Of a DNA stretch of 64,000 bases, positions 1-28,584 are shown piece after piece. Both the position numbers and the translations under genes were made by a program. The stretch's first letter is position 1, and every line of letters starts with the position of its first letter. The stretch spans positions 928,001 through 992,000 of the forward strand of contig CAVVPN010000003.1 of NCBI GenBank assembly GCA_963750165.1, written 5' to 3'. The notes beneath the pieces were generated by a model. The model was not told the DNA's origin. It did not search any database and saw only the letters and a list, made by a program, of their open reading frames with translations. This DNA comes from an uncultured Gemmataceae bacterium (GTDB taxonomy: Bacteria; Planctomycetota; Planctomycetia; Gemmatales; Gemmataceae).

Positions 1-2
1 AG

Positions 3-104
3 GGCCCGAAGGACGCGGCCAACGAGGTCATCATCCGCGCCGGCGGCGGCCAGACCGCGGCGCTGAAATTCACCCTGTACGTCGTCCGCCGGCTGCACGC
101 CTGA
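3..104 (+). CDS. tssK: 3' end of probable T6SS baseplate/connector TssK (partial, runs off window start)
   Basis: Open frame GPKDAANEVIIRAGGGQTAALKFTLYVVRRLHA* ending 35 bp before tssL. The ending resembles TssK C-termini and the position fits the usual tssK-tssL-tssM order. Confidence 0.55.
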   Translation, partial: GPKDAANEVIIRAGGGQTAALKFTLYVVRRLHA

Positions 105-139: not shown

Positions 140-868
140 ATGCGTGAGGACATCGCCGAACTGGTGCATGCCGTGTTCCGGGGCGGGTTCCGCCTGAAAG
201 AGCGGCTGGCCGCCGGGGAGCCCGTGGACCTCAAGGAGGGCCGCCGCGACCTGCTGCGGCTGCTCGACAACCCCCTGCTGCACGCCGGCGACAGGTACGA
301 CCTGGGCGTCCACTACGCGCTGGTGTGCTGGCTGGACGAGCTTCTCATCGACGACACGCCGGCGGGCCAGCAGTGGAGCGAGGAGTTTTGCCTGGAGCAG
401 GAACTCTATCAGACGCGCCTGCGGGCCCACAAGTTCTGGAACCCCGGCGTCAAGGCGGCCGAGGCGCGGCCCGGCGGCGACGTGCTGGAGGTGTATTACC
501 TCTGCTACCTGCTCGGCTTCCGGGGCGATGAGGACAGCCGCCCCGCCGACCTGGCCGCCTGGGCCGAGCGCGTGCGGCCGCAGGTGATGCGCGGCTACGG
601 CGAGGAACCGGCGCAGCTCGATAAGAGCACGCCGGACTCGGACGTGCCGTACCTGTTTGGGCGGTCGCAGTTCCGCAAGATGCTCCAGACGTGGGCCGTG
701 GCGTTGTTGATCCTGGCCTTCGTGGTGGGCTTCCTGGTGGTCTACCGGTTCGGCTCCCGGGTCAGCGCCCACGCCGCAGCGTGGGCCGAGCATGCCGCCC
801 GGCTGCATTGTGCTCCGGAGAGATCATGGGCTTCTTGCGTTGGATCTGGGACGGCCTCCGGCAACTGA
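140..868 (+). CDS. tssL: T6SS membrane subunit TssL (DotU family)
   Basis: YALVCWLDE, W..F.LE..LY, LEVYYLCYLLGFRG DotU motifs. Single C-terminal TM (AVALLILAFVVGFLVVY), no OmpA domain. Confidence 0.9.
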   Translation: MREDIAELVHAVFRGGFRLKERLAAGEPVDLKEGRRDLLRLLDNPLLHAGDRYDLGVHYALVCWLDELLIDDTPAGQQWSEEFCLEQELYQTRLRAHKFWNPGVKAAEARPGGDVLEVYYLCYLLGFRGDEDSRPADLAAWAERVRPQVMRGYGEEPAQLDKSTPDSDVPYLFGRSQFRKMLQTWAVALLILAFVVGFLVVYRFGSRVSAHAAAWAEHAARLHCAPERSWASCVGSGTASGN

Positions 869-2427
869 TCGGCCTGATTCTACCGATCTTTTCGAAGGCG
901 GCCGACTTCCGGTCGTACAGCTCGGGCGCGAAAATCGCCCTGCACGTCCTCGTTTTGGTCGTGGTCCTGGCCGGGTTGACCTTCCTGCAGAACTGGGTGC
1001 TACTGAGTTTCACCCTGGCTTTCCCCAATCACCCGTACCTCAAATGGATGTGGCTGCCGGTCCTGTTCCTGCTGGTGTACGTCCTCGTCTGGCTGCTCTG
1101 GTGGCTGTGGCACATCCTCCTCAGCGAGGAGGCCGGCTCGGACTTCCCGGACCTGGACGCGGCCTGGGGCGAGATCAGCAAGGCCCTGCAGGCGGCGAAC
1201 ATTGCCTTGCAGGACGTGCCGTTGTACCTGGTGCTGGGCCGGCCGGCGGCGGGGGAGGCGGCGTTGTTCCACGCCGCCCGCCTGCCGTTTCTGGTCAAGC
1301 AGGCGCCGGGCCCGGACGCGCCGGTGCAGGCCTGGGCCAACCGGCAGGACGGCATTTACGTCGCCTGCGTGGACTCGTCGCGGCTCGGCTCCCGGGCGAG
1401 CCTGCTGGCGCTCACCGGGGCCGAGGACTCGGGCGGCGCCGCCGCGCCGCTGGAGTTCGACGCCGCGACCGCCACCATCGGCGGCGCCACCATCGGGGCC
1501 GGCATGCAGGTAAATGTCGGCGGGTTGCTGGACGAGCAACTGCCGGAGGGGGAGCGGCGGCGCCGGGCCAAGGCGCTGGACGTGGCGGACCAGCCGGAGC
1601 TGGCCCGGCGGTTGACGGCGCGGCTGGAGCACCTGTGCCGGCTCGTGGCCCGGGAGCGCTGGCCGGAGCCGCCCGTCAACGGCATCCTGGTGCTGATCCC
1701 GCACGTCGCCACGCAGTCGCGGGCGGCCGCGGAGGGCACGACGCGCGACTGTCAGCAGGATCTGGAATCGGTCTGGAACGTCTTCCGGCTGTCTTGCCCG
1801 CTGTTCGCGCTGGTGTGCGACCTGGAAAAGGCCCCGGGGTTCGCGGACTTCCTGGAGGGCCACCTGGCGCGCTGCCGGACCGAGGAGGAGCGGCGCAAGG
1901 AGCGGCGGCGGCGCCTGGGCCGCCGCCTGGGCTGGGGCGTGGGCATGGACCCGGCGACCCGCCGCAGCGCCATCGAGGAACAGGTTGGGTGGATCGGCCG
2001 CGGCATGTTCCCGCACCAGATCTACAAAAGCGTTTTCTACACGGAACGGCCGGGGCGTGAGGACCCCGCCGAGATCATCCGTCACAACTACCAGGTCAGC
2101 CGCTTCTTCAACGCCATGTTCCAGGGCCAGCGCTGGCTGACCGCCATCGTTCGGGACGGCCTGATTATCCGGCAGGACGGGCCGGAGTTACTGGGCGGCT
2201 GTTACCTGGCCGCCACCGGCCAGGACGCGGACCGCGAACAGGCGTTCGTCGCCGGGGTGTTTGAGCGCCTGCAGGAATCCCTCCGCCTGATTCGCTGGAG
2301 CGACGAGGCCTTTCAGGAGGACGCCCAGTACCAGCAGTGGACGCGCCTCGGCTATCTCGGCTTGCCGGTGTTCGTTCTCGTCGTGGCGGTGCTGCTGATC
2401 CTGTGGTGGCAACCGTTTGGGGGCTGA
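826..2427 (+). CDS. tssM: TssM/IcmF-like protein: N-terminal TMs + cytoplasmic IcmF-N domain + final TM, no periplasmic domain
   Basis: ATG 826 after GGAG. Two N-terminal TMs, PLYLVLG degenerate P-loop, PVNGILVLIP, CPLFALVCDLEKAPGFADF, GCYLAATG..QAFV.GVF motifs typical of IcmF-N. Follows tssL. Confidence 0.8.
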   Translation: MGFLRWIWDGLRQLIGLILPIFSKAADFRSYSSGAKIALHVLVLVVVLAGLTFLQNWVLLSFTLAFPNHPYLKWMWLPVLFLLVYVLVWLLWWLWHILLSEEAGSDFPDLDAAWGEISKALQAANIALQDVPLYLVLGRPAAGEAALFHAARLPFLVKQAPGPDAPVQAWANRQDGIYVACVDSSRLGSRASLLALTGAEDSGGAAAPLEFDAATATIGGATIGAGMQVNVGGLLDEQLPEGERRRRAKALDVADQPELARRLTARLEHLCRLVARERWPEPPVNGILVLIPHVATQSRAAAEGTTRDCQQDLESVWNVFRLSCPLFALVCDLEKAPGFADFLEGHLARCRTEEERRKERRRRLGRRLGWGVGMDPATRRSAIEEQVGWIGRGMFPHQIYKSVFYTERPGREDPAEIIRHNYQVSRFFNAMFQGQRWLTAIVRDGLIIRQDGPELLGGCYLAATGQDADREQAFVAGVFERLQESLRLIRWSDEAFQEDAQYQQWTRLGYLGLPVFVLVVAVLLILWWQPFGG

Positions 2428-2589: not shown

Positions 2590-5500
2590 ATGGAACGGAC
2601 GGACGCCAACCGGGACGCACTCACCCCGGCGGATCAGCAGGTCCTGGAATCGTGGCTGCAGGAATTTGAACAATCCTGGCACGAGGACAAGCTCGGCCAG
2701 ACCCTCCATGAACTGCCAGCGGAGGGGACGCTGCGCCAGGTGGCGATGAGCGAGCTGACCAAGCTGGACCTGCGCCACCGCTGGCGTCGGGGCGAGCCGA
2801 AGAAAATCGAGTCCTACCTGAACGACATTCCCGATCTCGGCACGTCGGCCACGCTGTCGGTGGACCTGATCCGCGCAGAGGTGGAAGTGCGGCGGGAACT
2901 GGGCGAAGACGTCTCGGAGCAGGAACTGCTGACCCGCTTCCCGCTGCACGCGGACCAGCTGCGGGGCGAATTCTCGCAGTCCTGGCGCGCCGTCCCCGGT
3001 TCGCGGCCGAGCGCCTCGCTCTCGACCATCAACCCCATCGACACCCCGGCCCCGCGCACGGCTCCCGCCCCCGCTCCCCCGGCTCCCCGGCCCGCCGGCA
3101 AGGCCCCGGCGGCCGCCACGGCCCTGCCCCGGGCCGGCCAGCGCTACCGGATTATAACGAAGCACGACCAGGGCAACGTGGGCGAGGTGTTTCTGGCCCT
3201 GGACGAGGAGGTGCCGCGCGAGGTGGCGCTCAAGCGGTTGCAGGCCAAGTGCGCCGACGACCCGGAAACCCGCGCCCGCTTCCTCCGCGAGGCTGAAATC
3301 TGCGGACGGCTGGAGCACCCGGGCGTCGTCCCCGTCTACGGCCTGGGCGTCGATTCCGACGGCCGCCCCTTCTACGCCATGCGCTTCGTCAAGGGGGAGA
3401 GCCTCCGCGAGGTCCTGCGCCGCTTCCACGGCCAGGGGCCGCGCGACGCCGGTGCCCGCCGCGTCGAACTGCACAAGCTGCTCGGCCGTTTCATTACCGT
3501 GTGCCAGGCGGTGGAGTTCGCCCACCGCAGCGGCGTGCTGCACCGCGACCTCAAGCCGGCGAACATCATGCTCGGCGAATTCGGCGAGACCCTGCTCGTG
3601 GACTGGGGCATGGCCAAAATCCTCGGCCAGGACGAGGAACCGGGCGGCGACGTGGTCAGTGCGGTCGAGGCCCTGCTGCCGGACGCGCCGGGGGACGGAC
3701 AGGCATCCGCCGCGTCCGCCCAGTCCACCGCCCGCGGCCCGCAAGCGGACCTCACCCAGACCGGGCAGATTCGCGGCACCACCGCCTTCATGAGCCCCGA
3801 ACAGGCGGCCGGGAAGATCCACGAACTCACCCCGGCCAGCGACATCTACGGCCTGGGGGCGACGCTGTACCAGATCCTGACGGGCAAGCCGCCGTTCGAG
3901 GGGTCGGACCTCCGGCACATCCTGGGCCGGGTGCGGGCCGGCGACTTCCCGCGGCCGCGCAAGCTGGCCCCGGCGGTCCCGCCTGCCCTGGAGGCGATCT
4001 GCCTGAAGGCGATGGCACTGCGGCCGGGACAGCGCTACCCCTCGGCCCGGGCGCTGGCCGACGACCTGGAGCGCTGGCTGGCCGACGAGCCGGTGAGCGC
4101 ACTGCCCGAGCCGTGGACCGCGCGGGCCGGGCGCTGGCTGCGGCGGCACAAGGCGCTGGTGACCGGCGCCGTCGTCCTGCTGACGGCGGCGGTGGTCGCG
4201 CTGAGCGCCAGCACCGTGCTGATCGCCGAGGCCCAGCAGCGGACCGAGCAGCAGCGTGCGGCGGCGGCGGCGGCGGAGCAACAGGCCCGCGCCGCCTTCC
4301 AGGACGCGGACCACCAGCGCCAGCTCGCGGTCGCGGCGGAGCAGAAAATCAAGGGCGCCCTGGACAAGGTCGAGGTCGCCCGACAGGACGCCGAACGCCA
4401 GCGCATCAAGGCTGTGGACTCTCAGGAGAAGGAGGCCGAAGCCCGTGCGGCGGCGGAGCAGGCCCTTGCGAACGAGAAGGCGGCGCGGGAACAGGAGCAG
4501 GCGGAACGGAAGAAGCGGGCCCTGGCCGAGGCCGAGGGCCTCACCGAGGCCAACCCGGTCGCGGTGCGCAAGGTCATCGACATCCTGAAGTCCACCCCCC
4601 AGGACGTGCTGCCGCACGTGCTGCCGCGGCTGCGCGAACTCTGGGAGCGGAAAAAGCCGCCCCTGAGCCTCGGCCAGCGCCTCCGCGTCGGCGTGGCTCT
4701 GCTGATGCTGGACGACAAGGCGACCAGGGACATGCTCGCCGCGCTGCCCGGGTTGATGCTGCAGACGGACGACCCCGGGGAATTGCTCCTGGTGCGCGGC
4801 GCCCTGGAGCCGCACCGCGCGGCGGTGGCCCCGGCCCTGTGGCAGAAGGCGGACGACCCGAAGACGCCGAACGCCGAACGCTTCCGCGCGCTGGCGGCGC
4901 TGGCGGGGCTGGACGACGCGAAGGCCCGGTGGCACAACCCGACCTGGGCGCCGGCGAAAACCACTGCCGCCGGCACGCCCACGGCCTTTGTCGTCGAGCA
5001 CCTGCTGTCCGCCAACGCCCTGCGCCTGGGCCAGTGGGCCGAGGCGTTCCGGCCGGTCAGCGCGGAGTTGCTCGAGCCGCTGCAGGCGGCGTTCAAGGAC
5101 GCCCACCGACCGCACCGCGGGGTGGTGGCGGCGCGGCTGCTGGCCGACTTCGCCGCCGGGCTGCCCGAACTGCTCGCGGGACTGGCGCTGGACGCAAAGG
5201 ACGAGCAGTACCTGTTGCTGCGGCCGGTTTTGCTGGCCCACCCAGACCGGGCGGCGCCCGTGTTCCGCAAGGAGCTGGCGCGGCCGAAGCCGGACGCGCT
5301 GGACGCCCAGGTCGCCCTGGCGCGGCGGCAGGCGCACGCAGCGGTGGCCCTGCTCCACCTGGGCCAGGTGCAGGAGTCGGGGCGACTGCTCAAGCACGGC
5401 CCGGACCCGACGCTGCGGACGTTTCTGATCCACGCCCTGGGCCGGCGCGGCACCGACCCGGACCTGCTGGTGAAGCGGCTGAAGGCGACGGACGAGGTGT

Positions 5501-6619
5501 CGGAGCGGCGGGCGTTGATCCTGAGCTTCGGCGAGATCGCGGCGGGGCAGTGGCCGCTGGCGCGACGCCAGGAGGTGACCCAGGAATTGTTGAAGTGGTA
5601 TCGCGAGGACCCGGACCCGGGCGTGCATAGCGCCATCGACTGGCTGCTGCGGCACGGCATGCAGGGGCCGGTGCCGCGCAAACTGGACTGGCAGCAGGCC
5701 GCGGCGCTGGACAAACTCGACCGGAACCTTGCCGCCCTCGGCGACAAACTCCCGGTTGGTCGCGACTGGTTCGTCACAGCCCGGGGTGGGCACACGCTGG
5801 CAGTGGTCCGCAGACCTGTCGAGTTCTGGATGGGATCGCCTGCGGGCGAGCCACGGGGCTGGAGCTTTGACAACGAGGCGCTGCACCGCAAACGCATTCC
5901 CCGCTCCTTCGCGGTCGCCACGCGCGAGGTGACCGCCGCGCAGTTCAAGGCGTTTTTGCAAGCGCATTCGGAGCTGCAGAAGAAACACAAGCTGGAAAGC
6001 CAGGAGCGGTTCGGCCCCGACCCGGACGGGCCGGCGCTGGGGGTCACCTGGTCCGAGGCGGCTGCCTACTGCAACTGGCTGAGCAAGATCAACGGCATCG
6101 ACGCGGACCAGTGGTGTTACCAGATCAACGCCAGTTCCGGGGCCGTGAAAATGGCCCCCAATTTCCTCAACCTGCGCGGCTACCGCCTGCCCACCGAGTC
6201 GGAATGGGAATACAGCTGCCGGGCCGGCGCGGACCCGCTGGGGATTCGGCAACGGGGTCGCGATGCTGCCCGAGTACGCGTGGTTCTTCCTCACGAGCGA
6301 GGACCGCGCCTGGCCGGTGGGCCAGTTGAAGCCCAACGACCTCGGCCTGTTTGACATGCACGGCAATGCCTGGGAGTGGTGTCAGGATCGGGTGATGACA
6401 TTCGATTACCCGAAGAACGTGGCCGGCCAGGCCGTCGTGGAAACGCTGGAGCGGGAACTCACGCCTCTCGCGGCCAACCGGCGGTGTGTCATGCGTGGCG
6501 GTTCGTTCTTCAATCGAGCGCCCATCACCCGCTGTGCGCAGCGTTACCTTGGGAAAGTGCTGGGCGATCCGCCGGCCAACGACGCCGGCTTTCGGGTCGC
6601 ACGCACCATGCAACTCTGA
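2590..6619 (+). CDS. Membrane Ser/Thr protein kinase with C-terminal FGE-sulfatase (SUMF1-like) domain; frameshift near 6231
   Basis: VALK, HRDLKPANIM, DWGMAK, GTTAFMSPEQ motifs, then TM (ALVTGAVVLLTAAVVALS) and a coiled coil. FGE motifs FWMGS, YRLPTESEWEYSCRAG continue in another frame as KPNDLGLFDMHGNAWEWC..RGGSF..GFRVART*. Confidence 0.9.
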
Positions 6620-8524: not shown

Positions 8525-8965
8525 GGCCAAGGGCTCCTTCAGTCTGTTATTCCCCACCCAGTTCCAGGTGGCCCGGGAGACGCCGCCGAAGTAGCCGTCC
8601 CCTTCTGAAAATTGATGCAAAGTCACTTCACCACCAACTTCGGCCGCGGCCCCTCAGGCTGAAATGATTGCGACGGTTGAAGCGGCTGGCGGCATATTCG
8701 CGCGAACCCTCATATCCTGGAGAACCCCTTCTGTCGGAAAAGGCGTTGGAATTTACGATGCAGGCGCGGGAGCGGGTCCGATACTGAAAACAATCTCGAC
8801 GGGGTGAACCTCCTACGACCGCGGAACGGGCGAACCACCCTTTCCAGGCCGCGCAACCTGCCCCGAATCCGTTACGGTCACACCTCCATCCCGTTGGTCG
8901 TCGCGCCCGGTCCTCGCGGGCCCACGCCGCGGACGAGCTTGAACAGGAAAGAAGGAGTGCAGCCT

Positions 8966-10224
8966 ATGAGGTGGGAGTCAAGTCAGCCCCGTGGGGGCAA
9001 GGCGAAGGTTTGGGCGTTCGGGTTGACGTGCGTGGCCCTGTTGACCGGGGTTGCGCCGGCGCTGGCGCAGAAGCCTACTGACGCCCCGCCGACGAAGCTG
9101 TCGGACCTCGCCGCCCCGACGTTGGCGGCGGCGCCGGCGGCGCCGGACGCCAACGTGACCCAGGCGAGCTGCAGCACCTGCTCCGGCGGACTGCTCGGCG
9201 GCTCGCTCGGCGGCCCGCCGCCGCTCCCCGGCGACGGCGGCGGCTGCGGCGGTGGCGGCTGTGGCGGCGGTCAGTGCGTCCCGGGGCGATTGAACTGTTG
9301 CAGCTGCTGCGAGGGCCAGACCTGCCTGGGCCGCATGCTCTGCGGGTTCTACGAGTGCATCTGCTGCCCCGACCCCTGCTACGATCCACACTGGATCGCC
9401 CTCGCCGACTCCGCCCTCTTCGTGAACGCGCCCCGGCCCGTCACCCAGATGCACTGCGCTACGACGGCATTTACGGCATCCCGTTCGCGGATCGGGCTGA
9501 ATACTACTTCGCCCGGGACACGGGCACCCCGGCGGGCGGCGGCCGCGGGCCGAACTTCAACATGGCGCGCCTCGTCAACATCAATCAGCTGAGCCTGTAT
9601 AACGAAGCGGCCCTGGGGCGGTTCAGCGCCTTCATCGCGGTCCCGTACAACGAGGTCCACCGCGACACCGACTTCGGCTACAGCGTCGCCAGCTCCGGCT
9701 TCGGGAACCTGAGCGTCGGCACCAAGTCCATGTTACTCGACTGTGAGTTGCTGCAGATCACGTTGCAATTCACCACGTACATCCCCACCGCCAGCCCCGG
9801 CGGCGGCCTGGCAAACGGCCACGTGAGCCTGGAACCGGCCCTGCTGTTCGCGTTAAAGTTGACCCCCGAATCGTACTTCCAGGGGGAACTGGCCCAGTGG
9901 ATTCCGGTCGGCGGGGACACAATCTACCAGGGGAACGTGTTCCACTCCCACTTCAGCTTCAACCACATCCTGTGGCGTTTCCTCCCCGACGTGCAGTTGA
10001 TCGGGACGATGGAGCTGAGCGAGTGGTCGGTGTTGAACGGCAACTTCACCGACCCGTTGACCGGCGCGATCCAGCGGGCGGCCGGGTCCGCCTGGAGCCT
10101 CGGGCCGGGCCTGCGGTTAAACATCTGCAACCGGATCGACTTCGGCGCGGGGGTGCAGTTCGGCGTCGGCTCAGATCGGTGGTATGACGAGAACTTCCGG
10201 GCAGAATTCCGGTGGCGCTTCTGA
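8966..10224 (+). CDS. Putative outer-membrane beta-barrel protein with Cys/Gly-rich N-terminal region; frameshift near 9452
   Basis: ATG after GAAGGAG, signal peptide ending ALA, Cys-rich segment. Then amphipathic beta strands with GFGNLSVGTK and PT..GLANG motifs resembling MetA-pathway/phenol-degradation barrels, and C-terminal FRAEFRWRF (BAM beta-signal-like terminal Phe). Confidence 0.7.
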
Positions 10225-10267: not shown

Positions 10268-10442
10268 GTCATGTGCTCCAGTGCAGACAAACGCGCGTGC
10301 GGGCGCACGGTTTTCTTTTTCCGAGGCGGGTGTGTATACTTTCAGAATCACGGAGCACCCGCCACGCCGTTGCGTGCGCCGGAGTGCGCGGGCCGGGACG
10401 GTCGTCCTGACCCGATCTGCGGCCATCCGCGGTAGAAACGCC

Positions 10443-11579
10443 ATGCTCGCCACGGACACTCTGAACCTCGACAGGCTAACGGCCCCCATCTCCGCGGAAC
10501 ACCCCACCGGCGTGGACCTGCGCAGCGACCGCTCCCCCAACTCCCTCTACCGGCAGATTCGCGACGTCCGCGACACCGCCAAGACGGCGGAGCGGCAACT
10601 CCTCGTGGACGACGAGGAAGGCGGCGGGACAACACCCCCGGACTGGGTACCGGTGTTCGACCTGACCCGGCAGGCCCTCGCGGAAAAAACCAAGGACCTG
10701 GAACTCACGGTCTACCTGCTGGAGGCTCTGGTGCGCCGCGACGGCCTGGCCGGGCTGTCCGCGGGCTTCCACCTGATCCGTGAGTTGTGCGAGCGCTACT
10801 GGGACCAGCTGTATCCCGGCGCCGGTGCCGGTGCGGGGCTCGCGGACCGGGTCGCCCCGCTGGCGGGCCTGAACGACGTGGATGGCCTGATCCTGGAGCC
10901 CATGAACACCCTGCCGATCACGGAGGCCAGTGCCGCGGGGGGGCCGTACGATGGCGTGCGCTATCAGAAGGCAGTGGACCTGACCACGCGCGACGAGGCG
11001 ACGCGGCAAAAGCGCATTGCGGCGGGGACGATGCCGCTGGAGGCGCTCCAGGAGGCGGCCCAGGGGACCTCGCCGGAATTCTACGCGCGGGCGGTGGCCG
11101 CCCTGGCGGAATGCACCGATGCGCTGGAGCAACTGGGGGCCGTGCTGCAGGCGAAATGCGGCCGCGACGCGCCCTCCACGGCGCGGATCCGCGCCGCCCT
11201 GCAAAAATACGGCGAGGCGCTGCGCGGCGTGGCGAAGGACAAGGTGGCCGCCGCCATGCGGCCGCCCGGCGCGCCGCCGGCGCCGGCCGGCGCCGACGGG
11301 CCGGCGCCACCCGCGGCGGCGGCCCCGCTCCGGCCCGACGGGCCGCCGCCGACCCCCGGGCCCATCGGCAGCCGGGAGGAGGCGTTGCAAACCCTGCTGA
11401 AGGTGGCGGAATTTTTTCGCCGCACCGAGCCGCACACTCCGGTATCATATGCCCTGGAGGAGGCCGTCCGCTGGGGCAGGATGAAGCTGCCGGATTTGCT
11501 GGAAGAACTGATCGCCGACGAGGGGACACGGCAGCAGGTGTTCAAGCGGGTGGGCATCCGGCCGCCGTCCGCCGGGTGA
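10443..11579 (+). CDS. tssA: T6SS protein TssA (ImpA N-terminal domain)
   Basis: [29 protein letters not shown], Pro-rich linker, C-terminal [30 protein letters not shown]. Confidence 0.92.
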
Positions 11580-11620
11580 GGCCCGCCAACCGATTTCACG
11601 AGAAAGCGAGCGTTCAGACC

Positions 11621-12151
11621 ATGTCGCGCAGCATTCACGACGAGCTGAGTATGGTCCGCAAGCCCCGGGTACACATCACCTACGCGGTGGAAACCGAAGG
11701 GGCAGAGGTCGTCAAGGAACTGCCCTTCGTGGTGGGCGTCCTGGGCGACTTCTCAGGCAACCCCACCGAGCCGCTCAAGCCGCTGAGCGAGCGCAAGTTC
11801 ATCCAGATCGACCGGGATAATTTCAACGACGTGCTGCGGCGGATGACGCCGGGGCTGAACCTGCGGGTGGCGAACACCCTGAAGGACGACGGCAGCGAAC
11901 TGCCGGTGCAGCTGAAATTCAACTCGCTGGACGACTTCACGCCGGGCCAGGTGGTCAAGCAGGTGGAGCCGCTCCGCAAGTTACTCGAGGCCCGCAACAA
12001 GCTCCGCGACCTGTTGACGCGCGTGGACCGATCCGAAAAACTGGAGGGCCTGCTCGAGGAGGCCCTGCAGAACACCGAAAAACTCAAGCAATTCACGCCG
12101 GGTTCGGGCGGCGATGCCGCGGGCGACGCGAAGAAGGGGGGTGACTCGTGA
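11621..12151 (+). CDS. tssB: T6SS sheath small subunit TssB
   Basis: [50 protein letters not shown]. Confidence 0.97.
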
Positions 12152-13635
12152 GCCCGAAGGAACAGGCACAGGGCCGGCCGGCCGCCGAGACCCAGGAGGT
12201 CAGCCTCCTGGAGGAGGCCATCAAGCTCACCAAAACCGAGCGGTCCCAGGCCGAGGACATGCTCAGTAACCTCGCCGAGTGGGCGCTGAACAACACCATC
12301 ACCTGGGACAAGAACGTCACCCGGTCGATCAAGAAGGGCATGGAGGTCATCGACCAGATGATCTCGCGGCAGCTGGCCGCCATCATGCACGCGCCGGAGT
12401 TCCAGAAACTCGAGGGGACGTGGCGCGGCCTGCACTACCTGGTGCAGAACTCGCGGACCAGCGCCCAGCTCAAGCTCAAGGTGTTCAACGTCTCCAAGAA
12501 GGAACTGCTCAAGGACGTCGAGTCGGCGGTCGAGTTCGATCAGAGCCAGATCTTCAAGAAGGTATACACCAGCGAGTTCGACATGCCCGGCGGCGAGCCG
12601 TACGGGGCGCTCATCGGCGACTACGAATTCACCAACCACCCCGACGATCTGACGCTGGTCAGCAAGATGTCGAACGTGGCGGCGGCGGGGTTCTGCCCGT
12701 TCCTGACGGCGGCCTCGCCGGAGCTGTTCGGCTTCGACAAGTGGACCGAACTGTCCAAGCCGCGCGACCTGGAGCGGATCTTTGACACGGTCGAGTACAC
12801 GAAGTGGAAGTCGCTCCGCAACTCGGAGGACGCGCGCTTCGTCACGCTCACGCTGCCGCGCGTCCTGGCGCGGCTGCCGTACGGGGCGCAGACGAAGCCA
12901 ATCGAGGAGTTCGCCTACGAGGAGTTCGAGCAGAACCGCACGAGCAAGCCGCAGCCGGCGCCGCACGACCACTTCACGTGGATGAACGCCGCCTACGTGC
13001 TCGGCGTGCGGCTGACGGATGCGTTCTCGCAGTATGGCTTCTGCGTGGCCATCCGCGGGGCCGAGGGCGGCGGCATGGTGCAGGGGCTGCCGCCGTACAT
13101 CTTCACCAGCGACGACGGCGACCCGGACCTCAAGTGTCCGACGGAGATCGGCATCACCGACCGCCGCGAGAAGGAGCTGAGCGACCTGGGCTTTCTGCCG
13201 CTGTGCCACTACAAGAACACCGATTACGCGGTCTTTTTCGGCGCCCAGACGGCGCAGAAGCCCAAGAAGTACGACCGGCCCGAGGCGACCGCCAACGCCG
13301 CCATCTCGGCGCGGCTGCCGTACATCATGGCGACGTCGCGCTTCGCCCACTACCTCAAGGTAATGGCCCGCGACTGGATCGGCTCGCTGATGGAGGCTTC
13401 CGACACCGAAGCGCGGCTGACGCGCTGGATCATGAATTACGTCAACAACAACGAGAAGGCCTCGCAGGAGGAAAAGGCCCGCTACCCGTTGCGCGACGCG
13501 AAGGTGCAGGTCAAGGAGATTCCCGGCAAGCCCGGCTCGTACAACGCCATCGCCTGGCTGCGGCCGTGGCTGCAGCTGGAGGAGCTGAACGCCTCGCTGC
13601 GCATGGTGGCCCGCATCCCGCAGCTGGGCAGCTAG
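12148..13635 (+). CDS. tssC: T6SS sheath large subunit TssC (copy 1)
   Basis: GTG overlapping tssB stop. [63 protein letters not shown]. Confidence 0.97.
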
Positions 13636-13652
13636 AGCGGTTGGCGTTTGGG

Positions 13653-13711
13653 CGTAGCGGAAGTCGCCAGACTTCCGAAGCCGCTACGGAAGTCTGGCGA
13701 CTTCCGCTACG
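13653..13711. repeat. REPIN-like element: two inverted GTAG-type REPs
   Basis: Perfect 25-bp inverted repeat CGTAGCGGAAGTCGCCAGACTTCCG / CGGAAGTCTGGCGACTTCCGCTACG with 9-nt loop. Each arm is GTAG plus an internal palindrome CGGAAGTC-gcca-GACTTCCG. Confidence 0.8.
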
Positions 13712-13886
13712 AACAGATCGCTACACCCGACCGCGATGCGCGCTAGGCCGGCGGCCACGGTTACTTCGAGCCTTTTTCCCGAGCGGACCCGTTTATGTTT
13801 CGCGCGCTGCCGGTGCGCGGAACGTAAACGCATTCCGCGGAGCGGCAGCGCCGAGTGCGCAGTGAACTCCTTACCCCTGGATTGAG

Positions 13887-15510
13887 ATGGACCCCTCCGC
13901 CGGCGCCGCCGCCCTTCCCCCAAGCGTCCCCCAGACCGCACTGGTAGACGCCCCGGCCCCGGCGTTCGCGAGCCCGCCCGCGGCGGTCGGCCTGCTCGAC
14001 CACCTCCTGCAGGCGGCCCAGTCCGCCAGCAACCACGCCACCCACTGGCTGGACCGCTTTCTCGCGGAAACCTCCCTGGAGCAGGCGCTGGCGTTCTGGT
14101 GCGCGCGCAGCGCGACCGGGCCGCGGACCCGCCAGGAACTGGCCCAGTCCCTGAGCCGCGACATCGCCCGCCTCGACGCACTCCTGAGCCGGCAAGTCAA
14201 CGCCATCCTGCACCACCCGCAGTTCCAGCAACTGGAGGCCTCCTGGCGGGGGTTGCACTACCTTGTGGAGCAGGCCGGCGCGGCCGAGACGGCGAAAATT
14301 CGGGTCCTCAACCTCTCCTGGGCCGAACTGACGCGCGATCTCGACCAGGCCCTGGAGTTCGATCAGAGTCAGCTGTTCCGCAAGGTGTACGAGGGCGAGT
14401 TCGGCATGCCCGGCGGCGAGCCGTTCGCGGTCCTGCTCGGGGACTACGAGGTCCGGCCGCGGCCCACGGCGGAGCACCCCCACGACGACATCGCCACGCT
14501 GGCGGCCGTCGCCCGGGTGGCGGCGGCGGCCTTCGCGCCGTTCATCGCCGCGGCCCATCCGTCTCTGCTGGGGCTGGACAGTTTTACGGAGTTGGAGCGG
14601 CCCCCGAACCTGGCGCGGGCGTTCGACCAGCTGGAGTACCTCACCTGGCGGCGGCTGCGGGACGGCGAGGACGCCCGCTTCGTCGGGTTGACGATGCCGC
14701 GCGTCCTGTGGCGGCTGCCCTACCGCGACGACGGCACCCGCGTCGATGGGTTCGCGTTCAGGGAGGAAATCGAGGATCCGGCGCGGCGGCAGTACCTGTG
14801 GGGCAACGCCACCTACGCCTACGGCGCCGTGCTGCTGCGGGCGTTCGACGAAAACGGCTGGCTGGCGAACATCCGCGGCGTGCATCGCGACCCGGACGCC
14901 GGGGTCGGCGGCGGCGGCCTGGTGACCGGGCTGCCGGTCCACGCCTTCCGCACCGACCACCTGGGCGTCGCCGTCAAGTCGTCCACCGACATCCAGCTCA
15001 CCGACTTCCTGGAGAAGGAGCTGAGCGAGCTGGGCTTCTTGCCACTGTGCCACTGCCCGGACACCGAGGTGTCGGCGTTCTACAGCAGCGCGTCGGTGCA
15101 GAAGCCGCGCCGCTTCCAGGAGGCGGCGGCCACGGCCAGCGCCCGGCTGTCGGCGATGCTGCACTGCCTGCTGTGCGCCTGCCGGTTCGCCCACTACCTC
15201 AAGGTGATGATGCGCGACAAGCTGGGCGGCTTCACCGGCCCGGCCGAGTGCGAGGCGCACCTTGACGCCTGGCTGCGCGGCTACACGACCGCCACGAACG
15301 ACGACGACATCAGCTCGTCGGTGCGCCGCCGCTACCCGCTGCGCGAGGGCGCGTCCGCGTCCGCGAACACCCGCGCAAACCGGGGAGTTACACCTGTGTC
15401 ATGTACCTTCGCCCGCACTTCCAGCTGGACCAGGTGGTCACCGCGGTCAAGCTGACCACCGAACTGGTGCCGATGACCAGCTCGACGGCCCGGAAAGGAC
15501 CCCGCCATGA
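13887..15510 (+). CDS. tssC: T6SS sheath large subunit TssC (copy 2, N-terminally extended); frameshift near 15349, 3' end uncertain
   Basis: [44 protein letters not shown]. Continues in another frame as VRVREHPRKPGSYTCVMYLRPHFQLD. The end probably overlaps the tagJ ATG via a second slip. Confidence 0.9.
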
Positions 15511-16307
15511 GCGCAGCAGACGATTTTCAGGCCGGGCGGCTGCGGGAGGCCGTCGCCGCGCAGACCGAGGCGGTGCGCCAGCACCCGGACGACCCGGCCC
15601 GGCGCGTCTTCCTGGCGGAACTGCTGTGTTTCGCCGGCGACCTGCCGCGCGCCGACAAGCAGCTCGACGCCACCGCCCACCTGAACCCCAAACTGACGCC
15701 GGGCATTAGCCTGCTCCGCAACCTGATCCGGGCGGAGCAGGCGCGGCAGCAGTTTTACAGCGACGGCCGGCTCCCCGAATTTCTGGAGGAGCCGTCGCCG
15801 GTGTTCCGGCTGCACCTGGAGGCGTCGATCTGTCTGCGCGAGGGCAAGCCGGCCGACGCGTCGGCCCTGCTGGCGCAGGCCGAGGCGCAGCGCGTCCGTG
15901 TGAGCGGCACCTGCGACGGCACGCCGTTCCAGGGGCTTCGCGACCTGGACGACCTGACCGCCCCCGTCCTCGAAGTCCTGGCGACCAACGGCAATTACTA
16001 CTGGATCCCGATCGAGCGCGTCGAGCGGGTGCAGTGCGAGGCGCCGCGGCAGCCGCGCGACCTGCTGTGGCGGCGCGCCCAGCTGGCGGTGAGCGGCGGG
16101 CCGGACGGCGAGGTCTACCTGCCCACCCTGTATGCCGGCGCTGCCGCGGAGACGGACGATGGCCTGCGCCTGGGGCGCCGCACCGACTGGCGCGGCGGCG
16201 ACGGCGCGCCGGTGCGCGGCGTGGGCCAGCGCATGCTGCTGGTGGGCGGCGAGGCGCGGTCGATCCTGGAACTGCGCGACCTGACCGTGGAACAACCGCC
16301 CGCCTGA
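15507..16307 (+). CDS. tagJ: T6SS accessory protein TagJ (ImpE/SciE family)
   Basis: VRQHP.D...R.FLAELLCFAGD..RADKQL, RDLDD...PVLE, YYWIP, RDLLW, YLPTLY, LRLGRRTDW, GVGQR. Confidence 0.92.
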   Translation: MSAADDFQAGRLREAVAAQTEAVRQHPDDPARRVFLAELLCFAGDLPRADKQLDATAHLNPKLTPGISLLRNLIRAEQARQQFYSDGRLPEFLEEPSPVFRLHLEASICLREGKPADASALLAQAEAQRVRVSGTCDGTPFQGLRDLDDLTAPVLEVLATNGNYYWIPIERVERVQCEAPRQPRDLLWRRAQLAVSGGPDGEVYLPTLYAGAAAETDDGLRLGRRTDWRGGDGAPVRGVGQRMLLVGGEARSILELRDLTVEQPPA

Positions 16308-16318
16308 GGAGGCACCCC

Positions 16319-16812
16319 GTGGCCCGTGTCAAACCCGACCAGCCGCTCGTGCCCTCGGTGCTGGACCGCCTGCTCGACGACGAGCCGGGCGTGTCCACCG
16401 AGGCGCCGCGCTCGCGCGGCCAGGTGCTGCGCGAGCTGAAGCTGTCCGTGCAGCGCGACCTGAATCACCTGCTGAACACCCGCTGGCGGTGCCGGCACTG
16501 GCCGGCGGACCTCAAGGAACTGGGGCAGTCGCTGGTCAACTACGGCATCCCGGATTTCGCCGGCAGCAACCTGGCCTCCGCGGACAGCCGCCGGGCGCTG
16601 TGCCGCATCCTGGAGGACGTCATCCGGGCGTACCAGCCGGCCTTTTTGAAGGTCACCGTCCGTGTGCGCGACGACGACGAGCCGCTCGACGGCACGCTGC
16701 GCTTCCGCATCGACGCCCTGCTGCGCGTACATCCGCGCCGGAACCGGTTACCTTCGACCCGGACCTGGAACTGGACACCGGGACATTCAAGTTCGAGGCG
16801 CCGTCCCCATGA
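16319..16812 (+). CDS. tssE: T6SS baseplate subunit TssE (gp25-like); frameshift near 16733
   Basis: GTG after GAGGAGG. PSVLDRLLDD, SVQRDLNHLLNTR, SLVNYGIPDF, LRFRIDALL, then PEPVTFD in another frame ending with ATGA overlap on tssF. Confidence 0.9.
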
Positions 16813-18639
16813 GCGACGACCTGCTGGCGTATTACAACAAGGAACTGAGCTACCTCCGCCACCTGGGCGACGCCTTCGGCCGGGCGCACCCCAAGATCGC
16901 CCGCCGGCTGCGCCTGGACGCGGGCGCCAGCGACGACCCGCACGTCGAGCGCCTGCTGGAGGGCTTCGCCTACCTGAGCGCCCGCATCCGGCACAAGCTC
17001 GACGACGACCTGCCGGAAATCAGCGACGCCCTGCTCGGCGTGCTCTACCCGCACTACCAGGCGCCGGTGCCGTCGCTGGCGCTGGTGCAGTTCGCCCTGG
17101 ACCCGGGGCAGGCCGAGCTGGCGCAGGGCTACGCGCTCCCGGCCGGCACCGCCCTTGAGGCCGAGGCGCCCGACGGGGGGACCTGCTCCTTCCGCACCTG
17201 CTACCCGGTGACGCTCTGGCCGCTGGCGGTGCATGAGGCGGGCCTGCGCAAGCCGCCGTTCACCGCCCCGGTGACGCCGTTCTCCGGCAAGGCGGCGGCG
17301 GTGCTGCGGCTGTCGCTGCGCGGCCTCGCGCCCGCCCTGCCGCCGGCGCAACTGGAACTGGATGTGCTGCGGCTGTACCTGAAGGGCCAGCCGCAGCACA
17401 TCTACCCGCTGTACGAACTGCTGCACAAGGACACGCTCGGGGTCGCGGTGGCGGCGTCGGCCAACGACCCCGAGCCGGCCGTCCTGCCGCGGTCCTGTGT
17501 GCGGCCCGTCGGCTTCGACCGCGCCGAGGGCGCCCTGCCCTACACGGCCCGCTCGTTCCTGGGCTACCGGCTGTTGACCGAGTACTTCACGTTCCCGGAG
17601 AAATTTTTGTTCGTGGACCTGGCAGGGCTGCGCGGGCGACGGCCGCGCCGCCCCGGCGCGGCGCTGGAGGTCTACTTCTACCTGAGTCACTGGTCGAAGG
17701 ACCTGGAGCAGAACGTCACGGCGGACACGTTCCGGCTCGGCTGCACGCCGGTGGTCAACCTGTTCGCGCACCGCGCCGACCCGATCGAGCTGACCCAGAC
17801 TGAGTGGGAGTACCGCGTCGTGCCCGACCGCCGCCGGCCCGCGGGGCTCGAGGTGTACTCGGTGGACCGCGTCGTCGCCAGTTCGCCCGACGGCGCGGCC
17901 GTCGAGTACCGGCCCTTCTTCTCCACCCGGCACAGTCAGGAGGGCGAAGCGCCGGCGCCGTTCTGGTTCGCCACACGGCGGCCGTCCGAGGTGCCCGACG
18001 ACGCCGGGACCGAGGTGTACCTGTCGCTGGTCGATCTGAACCTGCGGCCGGCGGCGCCGGCGGCGTGGACCGTCACCGTGGAGACGACCTGCCTGAACCG
18101 CGACCTGCCGCGGCAGCTGCCCTACGGCGGCGACCAGCCGCGGCTGACGCTGAGCGCGGGCCGTGGCCCGGTGGGGGACATCCGCTGCCTGACGCCACCC
18201 ACGCCGACGCGCCGGCCTGCCCTCAAGCACGGGGCCATGTGGCGACTGATCTCGCACCTGACGCTGAACCACCTGTCCGTTGTGCATGACGGCGACGGTG
18301 CCGCGGCGCTCCGCGAGATCCTCAAGCTGTACGACTTCGCCGGCTCCGCCGAGACGCTGGCCCTGATCGACGGCCTGCGCGGCGCGCGGGCGGCCCGCCG
18401 TGGCGCGCGTCGGCCCGCCGGGCCGGTCGGCCGTCTGCCGCGGCGTCGAGGTCGCGCTGACGTTCAACGCCGAGAAGTTCGCCGGGCAGGGGGCGTACCT
18501 GTTCGCGTGCGTGCTGGAGCGGTTCCTGGCGCTGTACTGTTCGGTCAATTCGTTTACCCGGGTCGTCGCCACCGTTGAGGGGCGCGAGGGGGTGTGGTGT
18601 CAATGGCCGCCGCGGGCTGGGGAGATGATCTTGCTCTGA
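16809..18639 (+). CDS. tssF: T6SS baseplate subunit TssF; frameshift near 18390
   Basis: LLAYYNKELSYLR, DPHVERLLEGFAYL, GYRLLTEYFTFPEKFLF, LGCTPVVNLF, WRLISHLTLNHLS. Tail VLERFLALYCSVNSFT..WPPRAG in another frame. Confidence 0.95.
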
Positions 18640-19694
18640 CCCGGTGCCTGCAGCGCGAGGGGCACCGCTTCGACTTCTTCCAGGCGGTGCGCTTGCTGGA
18701 GCGCCTGGCCCGCGAGCGCGCCGCCGGCGCCGCGGCGCGGCCGTGGCGGCCCCTCGGGCAGGACTGGCCCGACCAGGAGGCCGTCCGCCTGCGCGTGCTG
18801 GCGGCGCTGAGCTTCCCCGCCAGTGCCGTCCACGAAATCCGGCCGCCGGTCGATTCGGGCCCGGCGGCGCCGCCGGAGTTGCTCGTCAGCTTCTTCGGGC
18901 TGACCGGCCCCAGCGGCGTGCTGCCGCAGCATTACACGTCGCTGCTCATCGAGCGCGTGCGGCAAAAAGACTTCGCCCTGCGCGACTTCCTGGACCTGTT
19001 CCACCACCGGCTGCTGTCCCTGTTCTACCGGGCCTGGCAGAAGTACCGGCTGCCGTTCGCCTATGAGCAGTCGCGGCTCGACCCGGGCGCCGACGCGGCG
19101 GACGCCGCGACCGGGGCCCTCTACTGCCTGGTCGGCCTCGGCACCGGCGGGCTGCGCCGGCGGCTGGCGGTCGATGACGAGGCGTTCCTGTTTTACGGCG
19201 GCCACTTCGCCCACCACCCGCGGAACGCCGATTCGCTGGAACGCTTGCTCGCGGACTACTTCGGCGTGGCAGTGGTGCTGGAGCAGTTTCGCGGCCAGTG
19301 GCTATACCTGGCGGAGGCGGACTGTTCGCAGTTGCCCACGGCGGCCGCGGCGGGGCGGAACCACGAACTGGGCGCCAACCTCGTGGTCGGCCGCCGCGTC
19401 TGGGATGTGCAGAGCAAGTTCCGATTGCGCCTGGGGCCGCTCACCTACGAGCAGTTCCGCGGCTTCCTGCCCGACGGGCGGGCCTTCCGGGCCCTGTGTC
19501 AGTTGACCCGCTCCTATGTGGGGTTAGAATTCGACTACGACGTGCAGCCGGTATTGCGCCGCGCGGAGGTGCCGCGCTGCCGGCTCACCCGGCAGGGGCC
19601 GGAGCGGCGCCGGCTCGGCTGGGACACCTGGGTGCGCTACGGCGACTTCCCGCGGGACGCGGAGGATGTCGTCCTACCCGCTCCGGCCGACTGA
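18603..19694 (+). CDS. tssG: T6SS baseplate subunit TssG
   Basis: FDFFQAVRLLE, FFGLTGPSGVLP.HYT, DFLDLFHHRLLSLFYRAW.KY, KFRLRLGPLTY..F..FLP, LGWDTW. Confidence 0.95.
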   Translation: MAAAGWGDDLALTRCLQREGHRFDFFQAVRLLERLARERAAGAAARPWRPLGQDWPDQEAVRLRVLAALSFPASAVHEIRPPVDSGPAAPPELLVSFFGLTGPSGVLPQHYTSLLIERVRQKDFALRDFLDLFHHRLLSLFYRAWQKYRLPFAYEQSRLDPGADAADAATGALYCLVGLGTGGLRRRLAVDDEAFLFYGGHFAHHPRNADSLERLLADYFGVAVVLEQFRGQWLYLAEADCSQLPTAAAAGRNHELGANLVVGRRVWDVQSKFRLRLGPLTYEQFRGFLPDGRAFRALCQLTRSYVGLEFDYDVQPVLRRAEVPRCRLTRQGPERRRLGWDTWVRYGDFPRDAEDVVLPAPAD

Positions 19695-19727
19695 GGGCGG
19701 CGCCGGCAGAACACCTTGGAGGCGACC

Positions 19728-20288
19728 ATGTCGGGGAAACGGCTTCCTGGCCCCGTGTGCAGCCATTCCCAGGGTTCCGGGCTCGACCCCGTGGACGACG
19801 GGACGTTGTGCCGCCAACCGTCGCCGCCCCCCGGGCCGCTGCAACCTTCACCCAGGGTCGAGAAGTCGCAGGCAGCCTGGGTCCGGGAGGCAGACGAGGA
19901 CGCGGCGCGGACGCAGGGCCTTCGCTTGCCGCCAGCGGAGAACGTGCCACTGCAACAGATCGTCACGGCGGCCTGGCACGCATTCCAGTACCTGAACCGC
20001 GCCCGGAAAGGCCACCCGCACGACACGGCCCTGGCGTGCGCCGAGCATTACGCCTACGCCCGTGCCGTGGTTTGCGCCGGCGGCCCCGTGGTGTACCCGC
20101 TCATGGTCGGTGTTGCGCTCTACTACGATGTCGCCAAGTGGGCCCTCGACAAGGTGAACCTCCGTCAGTTGCTCGACGCCAACCTGGACGGCTCGGGCTT
20201 CGTGACCGCCTCCTCTCCGGAACAGGTCAAGGCCGCCCGCGACGGGGCCGACGCAGGACTCGCGCTCCACTTCGCGGCGTTCCGGTAG
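19728..20288 (+). CDS. Hypothetical protein inside the T6SS core operon (possible effector or accessory)
   Basis: ATG after GGAGG, 186 aa, between tssG and clpV. Contains AEHYAYAR and a hydrophobic stretch. No family recognised. Confidence 0.65.
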   Translation: MSGKRLPGPVCSHSQGSGLDPVDDGTLCRQPSPPPGPLQPSPRVEKSQAAWVREADEDAARTQGLRLPPAENVPLQQIVTAAWHAFQYLNRARKGHPHDTALACAEHYAYARAVVCAGGPVVYPLMVGVALYYDVAKWALDKVNLRQLLDANLDGSGFVTASSPEQVKAARDGADAGLALHFAAFR

Positions 20289-20470
20289 ACGCGCTGTCCC
20301 GTTGATTCTGCCGGCCGGATGGCGAAAGAGGTGATTCGTCTGGCTCACCGCTCCCAGCCGATCCGCCATTCTGATTTCCGATGGCTTTTTCGCTGGCGAC
20401 AACTTGACCGGGGGCGTAAAATGCCTCCGCGTTGCCGGCGTGTTGGTGCAACACTCTGGATGGTGGCAGC

Positions 20471-23125: not shown

Positions 23126-23295
23126 CCAGGGGGACGAGGCAAGAAGGGAGGTCAAGGAACCGGGAAACCGAGCAGCCCGGCATCGTTGGACCTGTCGGAA
23201 CGCCTGACGGCATCAGCACGCAGTCCCGCTCAGGCACCGCACCGTCATCGCACGAGCACGCAACGGGCAACCTTTACCTGAAGGAGCTGTGGACC

Positions 23296-23787
23296 ATGCC
23301 GATTTACATGAAATACGAGGCGATCAAGAAGGGTGAGTCGCAGGCCAAGGGCCACGAGGGCGACAAGGGCTGGATCGAAGTGCAGAGCGTGCAGTTCGGG
23401 GCCAGCCGCAACATCCAGACGCCGGTTGGGCAGAGCAGCAAGCGCGAGGCGTCGGCGCCGAGCATCAGCGAAATCACCATCACCAAGGTCCAGGACAGCA
23501 CCTCACCGTTGCTGTTCCAAGAAGCCGTGGCCGGCAAGGGCAGCAAGGTGAACATCGATTTCTGCCAAACCCAAGAGGGCAAGCTGGAGACCTACCTGGA
23601 ACTGACGCTGACGAATACGATGGTGTCCGGCTACAGCGTCAGCAGCGCCGGCGAAAACCACCGCCCCGTGGAAAGCATCTCGCTGAACTTCACCAAGATC
23701 GAGTACAAGACCACGCCCTTCGACGACAAGCACGTGGCCGGCACGCCGACCTCGACATCGTACGACCTGGCCCAGGGGGCCAAGTGA
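23296..23787 (+). CDS. hcp: T6SS tube protein Hcp (TssD)
   Basis: ATG after AAGGAG. IYMKY..I.KGES..KGH..WIEVQS..G, SEITITK..DS.SP.LF, P.ESISLNFTKIEY. Confidence 0.95.
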   Translation: MPIYMKYEAIKKGESQAKGHEGDKGWIEVQSVQFGASRNIQTPVGQSSKREASAPSISEITITKVQDSTSPLLFQEAVAGKGSKVNIDFCQTQEGKLETYLELTLTNTMVSGYSVSSAGENHRPVESISLNFTKIEYKTTPFDDKHVAGTPTSTSYDLAQGAK

Positions 23788-23900
23788 GCGGGCCGTGCTG
23801 ACCGCGTTTTCGGCTGGCGGCGCCCCGCGGCGCAGGGCGCCGCCGCTGAGGAGTTCGGCCCCGTTCCCCCAGCACGCGCCCGCAAGGGAGGGCCGCCGTC

Positions 23901-26177: not shown

Positions 26178-26213
26178 CGGCCCTGGACCCGCACGGGTTA
26201 GAAGGGATGGGCG

Positions 26214-26945: not shown

Positions 26946-26953
26946 GGTGCGGC

Positions 26954-27349: not shown

Positions 27350-27360
27350 GAGAGTCGGCC

Positions 27361-27909: not shown

Positions 27910-27922
27910 CCGCAGGTGGCGC

Positions 27923-28540: not shown

Positions 28541-28584
28541 CGGCCGGGCCGGGGGCGACCGGTCACGGTGGCGCGGAGGATTCG

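Follow-up and report, generated by a model that had tools for sequence, protein, structure and literature searches.

Introduction

TssM's periplasmic half is seen as forming the channel and the outer-membrane anchor in a type VI secretion system (T6SS), and as essential. The window analysed here, a 64,000-nucleotide stretch from an uncultured Gemmataceae bacterium of the class Planctomycetia (GenBank assembly GCA_963750165.1, contig CAVVPN010000003.1, positions 928,001 to 992,000 of the forward strand), carries a T6SS cluster whose TssM ends immediately after its last membrane helix; we call this protein the stub. With the TssJ-TssL-TssM type of system (T6SS-i) of enteroaggregative Escherichia coli (EAEC) (PMC6517824, PMC10433429; these and all other papers are cited from part of their text) the locus shares the gene order tssK-tssL-tssM, the N-terminal hairpin, cytoplasmic NTPase-like domain and third helix of TssM, and the full set of baseplate, sheath, tube, spike and ClpV proteins. 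It differs from the EAEC type in that TssM has no periplasmic half, TssJ is undetected, TssL is without a periplasmic part, the nucleotide motifs are lost and extra conserved envelope proteins are present. Planctomycetia keep complete T6SS clusters in 180 of 401 sampled species, yet the periplasmic part of TssM has gone, along with the NTPase site and apparently TssJ. The available text of two papers on Rhodopirellula baltica notes T6SS genes without comment on TssM (PMC2660368, PMC5394234), and their supplements may list a short gene; we found no description of the stub form in the literature searched, where most subscription papers lay out of reach.

Results

The stub ends where the cytoplasmic half of TssM ends

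The stub gene and its downstream neighbour are as follows.

826..2427, plus strand: stub tssM, 533 amino acids (aa); two N-terminal membrane helices, a GTPase-like cytoplasmic domain, a third helix and a 7-residue tail
1237..1260, plus strand: degenerate P-loop GRPAAGEA, residues 138-145
2347..2403, plus strand: third membrane helix, residues 508-526, the point at which PF14331 ends in long TssMs
2425..2427, plus strand: TGA stop of the stub, at the end point conserved in the family
2590..6354, plus strand: Ser/Thr kinase with an FGE-sulfatase-like domain, which seems to continue in another frame (6263-6619)

Translation of the open reading frame (ORF) at 826-2427 gives 533 aa with the C-terminal end LPVFVLVVAVLLILWWQPFGG. 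Hydropathy places membrane helices at residues 37-55, 76-94 and 508-526 and leaves 7 residues beyond the last, which bears out an earlier note, made from the bare sequence, that had described a TssM ending right after its last transmembrane helix. The stub matches PF14331 (IcmF N-terminal) at E 1.8e-8 and 34.5 bits (cut-off 25), over profile positions 6-86 of 259 only, and hhalign pairs it with one long TssM at 97.3% over 188 columns. In the Pfam scan of the protein no family besides PF14331 was found, the periplasmic-domain families PF06761, PF21070 and PF06744 being unmatched, and TIGR03348 was likewise unmatched. The stub is the sole PF14331 match of the whole source genome (9.6 Mb, 93% complete), and PF06744, the IcmF C-terminal domain, was not found genome-wide. 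Because PF14331 stops at the third helix in long TssMs, the stub corresponds to a canonical TssM cut at that helix: the helical hairpin at the N-terminus is retained, as are the GTPase-fold domain and helix three, the whole periplasmic half is lost, and TssL is likewise without a periplasmic part. Its orientation in the membrane is presumably that of its homologs. An AlphaFold2 model built with 83 homologs has a pLDDT of 88.6, and a wide structural search with it found that residues 130-490 resemble small GTPases (best Z 11.0, rmsd 3.3 Å, 166 aligned residues); no TssM chain was among the matches of that search, and Foldseek returned nothing from the PDB at E<=0.001 for the whole model.

The DNA past the stop is largely as the earlier note had it: the 162-base spacer (2428-2589) is AT-richer, with 54% G+C vs 69% on either side, and a kinase/FGE-sulfatase gene follows. 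The promoter-like TGCTACAAT that it had pointed to is present at 2440-2448, but a sigma-70 scan calls no promoter in this spacer, so that TGCTACAAT is at most an extended -10 look-alike. A further claim, that the stop is no frameshift artefact, bears on the idea that the periplasmic half is encoded elsewhere or reached by frameshifting. Such an arrangement has a precedent in tssM1 of Citrobacter rodentium, where slippage restores the full length (PMC4256274); a G5 run lies immediately 5' of the stub stop, and very divergent halves could evade detection. Both shifted frames, however, close within about 80 codons and the same frame beyond the stop enters the kinase, so that neither frameshifting nor readthrough gives the stub a periplasmic domain. 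The kinase is the only long frame past the stop, nothing in the stub loci or the source genome matches the C-terminal portions of 20 long TssMs, PF06744 is absent, and the downstream neighbours vary among loci, the kinase recurring in 3/11 wide loci. The idea of a split or recoded gene is by now largely refuted and very improbable.

The short TssM is the rule in Planctomycetia

A word search for stub homologs within a length window of 293-933 aa returned 97 proteins of 326-602 aa. A separate search for longer homologs by shared words found none among 7993 candidates, with a method that is insensitive, since other classes do have long homologs. With a profile, 977 representatives were found at E<=1e-30, the best 150 of which measure 381-629 aa. 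The median of 233 short homologs is 543 aa and their maximum 629 aa; 230 of them reach the end of the model, and 224 of these 230 stop no more than 15 residues past it, none going beyond 54. In 401 genomes drawn from the phylum there were 47 with a match: 21 of Planctomycetia with short frames, and 26 of other classes, all 26 with frames of 1124-1736 aa. Among 401 Planctomycetia genomes 180 match, and in 179 of the 180 the TssM is short, the exception being G533; this count rests on the best match per genome, secondary matches being listed in part, and a frame above 1000 aa occurs only in G533. Eleven of the longest other frames, from 10 genomes, end 1-54 residues past the match and owe their excess length to upstream sequence (G724, with 738 aa, was left out of this check). 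Carriers of the short form include complete single-contig genomes, and the named relatives belong to Gemmataceae, Isosphaeraceae, Pirellulales and Planctomycetaceae, which points to Planctomycetia as the class.

These data confirm that the short TssM is the rule in Planctomycetia and not a pseudogene. A strain-specific pseudogene or an assembly error might be suspected from apparent single frameshifts in three other genes of the locus, the kinase (6263-6354), the barrel partner (near 8036) and the barrel (near 9450) described below, which are either assembly indels or decay. Close relatives are nonetheless short rather than full length, and the shared end point of 224/230 homologs, complete single-contig genomes included, refutes this explanation, to which we attach next to no probability.

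TssF was found in 3/75 genomes without a stub vs 5/5 genomes with one, which means that stub and T6SS go together. In a TssK tree the 66 stub loci fall on one side of a branch and the 20 long loci on the other, with support 99; this was a quick tree with a midpoint root and no outside outgroup, from which partial TssKs were left out, and it fits, without proving it, a single origin of the stub-type T6SS.

Several variants were seen along the way. G533, which holds the one long TssM of the class (L170:997-5145), has an intact Walker A motif and carries the gene on a 9.9-kb contig that may reflect transfer or misbinning. An Isosphaeraceae-type subgroup has a still shorter TssM of about 480-500 aa in a compact cluster (L176:9321-10826, L178:9330-10790, L177:9492-10943, L173, L174), in some members with a second C-terminal hydrophobic helix; in G418 the gene after it is a 526-aa ORF that looks methyltransferase-like by eye. 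Both kinds of stub occur together in G602, G618 and G473, and tandem pairs of stub tssM genes in L069:3095-7051 and L079:9812-13203. Four records titled Alcaligenaceae or Alphaproteobacteria (L078, L090, L092, L093) also carry the stub and are either mislabelled or transfers out of the phylum. In other classes, the TssMs of L144-L155 and L160-L162 are unusually long (1398-1606 aa); in five that were scanned PF14331 was the sole IcmF family and about 1000 periplasmic residues had no IcmF match, and most of these genomes show no TssJ. They possibly belong to a second non-canonical membrane complex.

Three nucleotide motifs are replaced in the short TssMs

In the stub model GRPAAGEA lies between the strand at 133-137 and the helix at 144-150, and in an alignment of 222 near-complete short TssMs with 20 long TssMs it matches, column for column, the intact GxxxxGK[ST] of the long proteins; the placement and the alignment together identify it as the P-loop position and uphold its description as a degenerate Walker A motif. 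Among the 222 short TssMs, 149 have Glu, 17 have Asp and at most 4 have Lys in the Lys column of G1 (Walker A); 165 have Thr and at most 1 has Asp in the Asp column of G3 (Walker B); and 215 have Asp and none has Lys in the Lys column of G4, (N/T)KxD. The long TssMs (20/20) retain these three residues. Cysteines are conserved in the stub family at former nucleotide-motif positions (C181 in 93%, C331 in 80%, C459 in 84%), where a structural or redox role is possible.

Some canonical TssMs manage without NTPase activity (see also PMC3346141). The TssM of Agrobacterium tumefaciens depends on its Walker A, Walker B and (N/T)KxD motifs, and Hcp release there needs ATPase activity (PMC3346141). Since the motifs important there are the ones replaced here, NTPase activity is very probably gone from the stub, and together with the conserved end point the loss of all three motifs supports and strengthens the proposal of the earlier note that only the cytoplasmic docking part is kept, probably without NTPase activity.

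The cluster is a T6SS-i core complete except for tssJ

The T6SS genes around the stub are the following.

1..104, plus strand: 3' end of tssK (PF05936, E 1.4e-73), whose start lies about 1350 bases before the window
140..868, plus strand: tssL (DotU), with a C-terminal helix and no peptidoglycan-binding domain; 40 residues past the helix here
10281..27349, plus strand: rest of the T6SS core, with tssA, tssB, two tssC, tagJ (ImpE), tssE, tssF, tssG, clpV, hcp, vgrG, DUF6484 and PAAR-like genes

The T6SS-i core genes tssA, B, C, E, F, G, K, clpV, hcp and vgrG are present, so that the set is complete except for tssJ, and each core gene has one locus in the source genome; an SMI1/KNR4 gene and a DUF2169 gene follow further downstream. 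In 78/80 TssL relatives the protein ends no more than 15 residues past the helix. At stub loci of at least 20 kb tssL is found in 40/40 and tssK in 35/40, a gene order which, together with known systems, suggests that the stub would dock TssK and TssL. IcmF_C was not found in the 21 stub genomes searched (0/21), and none of the TssN-R families was among the Pfam/NCBIfam matches of the scanned locus proteins.

A machine with no recognisable channel part could have been redirected, delivering cargo into the cell's own enlarged periplasm or being itself released on lysis, so that an envelope channel is unneeded; the periplasm is indeed very large in this phylum (PMC5394234). Against this, clpV, tssA, tagJ, vgrG, the PAAR-like gene, the DUF2169 adaptor and the SMI1/KNR4 immunity gene are kept, as in ordinary reusable antibacterial systems, and we hold redirection to be improbable.

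Two pseudo-caspase giants accompany the stub

A neighbourhood scan with local profiles covered 90 loci (79 plus 11 wider ones), at which three groups of genes recur: a pair of giants, A and B, an outer-membrane barrel and an exported partner of the barrel. The giants occupy the following positions in the window.

32707..37833, plus strand: giant A, 1708 aa; an Arg-rich tail that includes a conserved Trp, a single membrane helix, a caspase-like domain missing its catalytic Cys, a long middle region and a VWA domain
37861..38847, plus strand: N-terminal piece of giant B, 328 aa, with tail, helix and caspase-like domain; the N-pieces of relatives measure 834-893 aa
39098..41056, plus strand: C-terminal piece of giant B, a separate gene with a signal-peptide-like start, ending in a carboxypeptidase-regulatory (Ig-like) domain

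Giants A and B are mostly 1450-1900 aa long and begin with an Arg-rich tail that bears a conserved Trp, followed by one helix and the caspase-like domain; A carries a VWA domain, and the C-terminal end of B is Ig-like. In most families the C-part of B is fused to the N-piece (about 1450-1900 aa), and in several Gemmataceae, as here, it is a separate gene. Signal-peptide-like starts, judged by eye, in 9/9 stand-alone C-pieces support a periplasmic location, and Lys and Arg are commoner before the helix than after it in 24/27 giants. The caspase-like assignment draws on an NF047832 match below its cut-off and on Atlas leads at 0.87. In the caspase-like domain of 27 giants the His is present in 15/27, and Cys in 1/27 at each of two columns after the invariant Asp; as judged from these residues the giants lack a His-Cys catalytic dyad, hence pseudo-caspase. 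Neither giant has a Pfam/NCBIfam match to TssN-R.

The giants follow the stub through the class. The C-domain of B was found at E<=1e-17 in 127/179 stub genomes vs 5/222 others, and the caspase-like domain at E<=1e-20 in 34/38 vs 11/38, the four stub genomes missed having strong B matches; in frames of at least 1200 aa the domain occurs in 28/38 stub genomes vs 0/38 others. All 5 tested genomes without the B marker have a member of 1300-1940 aa no more than 60 kb from tssM. In 22/79 loci no more than 500 bases separate tssM from a giant gene, and in G120, G370, G551 and G183 tssM stands directly between two giant genes, apart from tssK-tssL. In 20 long-TssM neighbourhoods no giant, barrel or exported partner was found. 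A complex prediction for the stub with the first 330 residues of giant A scored 0.01 vs a mark of 0.32 and was counted neither for nor against an interaction.

Several Isosphaeraceae loci (L106:63-4607, L103, L113) encode, immediately upstream of tssK, a caspase-like protein of about 1500 aa; the one that was scanned, that of L106, has WD40 repeats.

A FapF-like barrel and an exported protein recur beside the cluster

The other two recurrent groups lie between the kinase and the rest of the core.

8804..10224, plus strand: FapF/COG4313-like outer-membrane barrel with a signal peptide and an extended N-terminus; frameshifted once near 9450; present once in the genome
6748..8626, minus strand: exported Cys/Pro-rich protein that recurs beside the barrel gene and is fused to the barrel in G358; split by one frameshift near 8036

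The barrel model has about twelve strands and matches the fold of FapF/COG4313 proteins (PDB 5o65, 4rl8) at E 1.5e-7 and TM 0.67. The gene occurs in 125/179 stub genomes vs 21/222 others and often adjoins tssK. A 12-stranded barrel is too narrow for passage of the Hcp tube, so that this protein would be an anchor or a sensor, not a channel. FapF/COG4313 barrels share the fold; here no amyloid (fap) genes were seen, and the barrel is associated with T6SS loci.

A second predicted outer-membrane barrel gene lies just before the window, upstream of tssK (L001:17271-18482). Its product has a signal peptide and a C-terminal Phe, no Pfam/NCBIfam match and a single copy in the genome, and a homolog stands beside tssK in G120; we rejected it as a core part, since it recurs in 2/90 loci only. 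Also rejected, at the sequence level, was an origin of the giants or barrels as the split-off periplasmic half of a long TssM, for which there was no BLAST or profile match.

The remaining genes of the window include a likely effector, immunity and adaptor block at 26214-31788, made up of DUF6484 and PAAR-like genes, the SMI1/KNR4 gene, a 205-aa ORF (27923-28540) without a Pfam match, which may be nuclease-like, and a DUF2169-HEAT protein. A 190-aa ORF between tssG and clpV (19716-20288) has no Pfam match and no homolog in ten wide loci.

Discussion

Proposed membrane complex

From the observed architecture of the stub, its motif loss, its class-wide spread and its co-occurrence with the giants, we think it somewhat probable that the stub is the normal TssM of a Planctomycetia-specific T6SS in which the baseplate docks on TssL and the stub while the giants span the periplasm, as TssQOPR do in Bacteroidota. 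By comparison with known systems (PMC10781749, PMC10433429), TssL and the stub would make up a ring in the inner membrane to which TssK and the baseplate are recruited, and the dead GTPase domain would act as scaffold. Gene context suggests that giants A and B could supply the periplasmic scaffold and the tube guide; with the tail inside and about 1500 residues outside, the pseudo-caspase domain would sit next to the membrane and the VWA or Ig-like domain at the far end. In about 70% of the genomes the FapF-like barrel and its exported partner might, again from their neighbourhood, provide the outer-membrane attachment that replaces TssJ. Such a complex would be hybrid, combining a TssK-L-M dock of proteobacterial type with an overlying periplasmic part laid out like Bacteroidota TssQOPR. 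A bolder version, to which we would give even chances, is that this is a third T6SS membrane-complex design, with a dock of TssL and a dead-GTPase stub, two giants as a longer or extensible conduit suited to a variable periplasm, and barrel and partner tying it to the outer membrane, which arose once and is now found in about 45% of the species of the class.

Several points weigh against the proposed role of the giants. The tie between stub and giants rests on co-occurrence and adjacency, which would fit regulators, sensors or adhesins equally well, and since the genomes are kin all the co-occurrence counts amount to one evolutionary event. The E<=1e-17 cut for B was set after the two-humped score list had been seen, and at E<=1e-5 the C-domain is found in 280/401 genomes by way of its generic Ig-like end. 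The 11/38 non-stub genomes that match the caspase-like profile do so in frames of 416-1102 aa, and 1/5 long-TssM genomes has weaker caspase-like matches, on another contig. At these thresholds 40/179 stub genomes are without both the B marker and the barrel, and in the compact Isosphaeraceae-type cluster of G418 and G434 no giant or barrel gene lies within 10 kb of tssM. The TssJ profile (PF12790) matched in 0/21 and 0/79 stub genomes, 0/100 in all, and not in G533, but the same profile detects only 6/26 long-TssM genomes of the phylum, so that the absence of TssJ says little by itself. Because giant B is about 550 residues short and three genes look frameshifted, this copy of the locus may be in decay or wrongly assembled, even though the stub of this strain is normal.

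Some of these points favour an inner-membrane-only anchor, in which the membrane complex consists of TssL and the stub and nothing else; the spike would then pierce wall and outer membrane without guidance, or fire only at places where the two membranes are held together beforehand, and the giants and the barrel would be sensors, adhesins or regulators of the time and place of firing. Compact clusters in some complete genomes show no giant or barrel gene within 10 kb of tssM, and 54/179 stub genomes are without the barrel. VWA and Ig-like domains are typical of binding proteins (PMC10781749), and the planctomycete periplasm, variable and pinned at crateriform structures (PMC5394234), may disfavour a bell of fixed length. 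On the other side, a giant lies in or near the locus in 5/5 marker-negative genomes tested, a caspase-like or strong B match is present in 38/38 sampled stub genomes, and TssM's C-terminal domain is needed in the systems studied (PMC4256274). The constancy of the giants, together with the loci in which tssM stands between both giant genes, therefore favours structural parts, and we consider an inner-membrane-only complex unlikely, if the most serious of the alternatives.

Either the channel is built by other proteins, which would add a membrane-complex design to TssJLM and TssNQOPR, or a T6SS can fire without any; the stub also separates, in a natural protein, the docking role of TssM from its channel and NTPase roles. 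It is also a compact subject for work on the cytoplasmic TssM domain, of which no high-resolution structure had been reported as of 2019, according to the available text of PMC6517824. Cultured, completely sequenced carriers exist in Singulisphaera and Tundrisphaera, so that the proposal is directly testable.

Comparison with known systems

The TssM of A. tumefaciens (PMC3346141) has the three helices and the GTPase-type cytoplasmic fold in common with the stub, and differs in its intact Walker A, Walker B (hhhhDxxG) and (N/T)KxD motifs, all three of which are replaced here. In the Bacteroidota T6SS-iii (TssNQOPR; PMC10781749) a cytoplasmic hub docks TssK, and separate single-pass or exported VWA and PKD proteins build the periplasmic part: TssQ, TssO and TssP each have a single membrane pass, TssP resembles PKD domains and TssR carries a VWA domain (PMC10781749). 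A likeness to the giants is proposed by analogy; T6SS-iii has no TssL or TssM, whereas both are present here, and the giants are far larger and have no Pfam/NCBIfam match to TssN-R. The Acinetobacter T6SS (PMC10564176, PMC13584744) likewise has no TssJ, which lineage-specific accessory proteins (TsmK, TslA, TagX), including a pseudo-enzyme, compensate; its TssM is full length and itself reaches the outer membrane, unlike the stub.

Two TssM forms come closer in shape. TagP of the Pseudomonas putida K1-T6SS (PMC10433429) is without the canonical C-terminal domain and has a peptidoglycan-binding domain instead, and the frameshift-truncated TssM1[1-807] of C. rodentium (PMC4256274) retains a portion of the periplasmic region and depends on the full-length form. 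In contrast to both, the stub is the only TssM of its genome and has no periplasmic domain. Set beside the canonical family, it matches the cytoplasmic half of TssM and lacks two of the defining features, the periplasmic domain and the nucleotide motifs.

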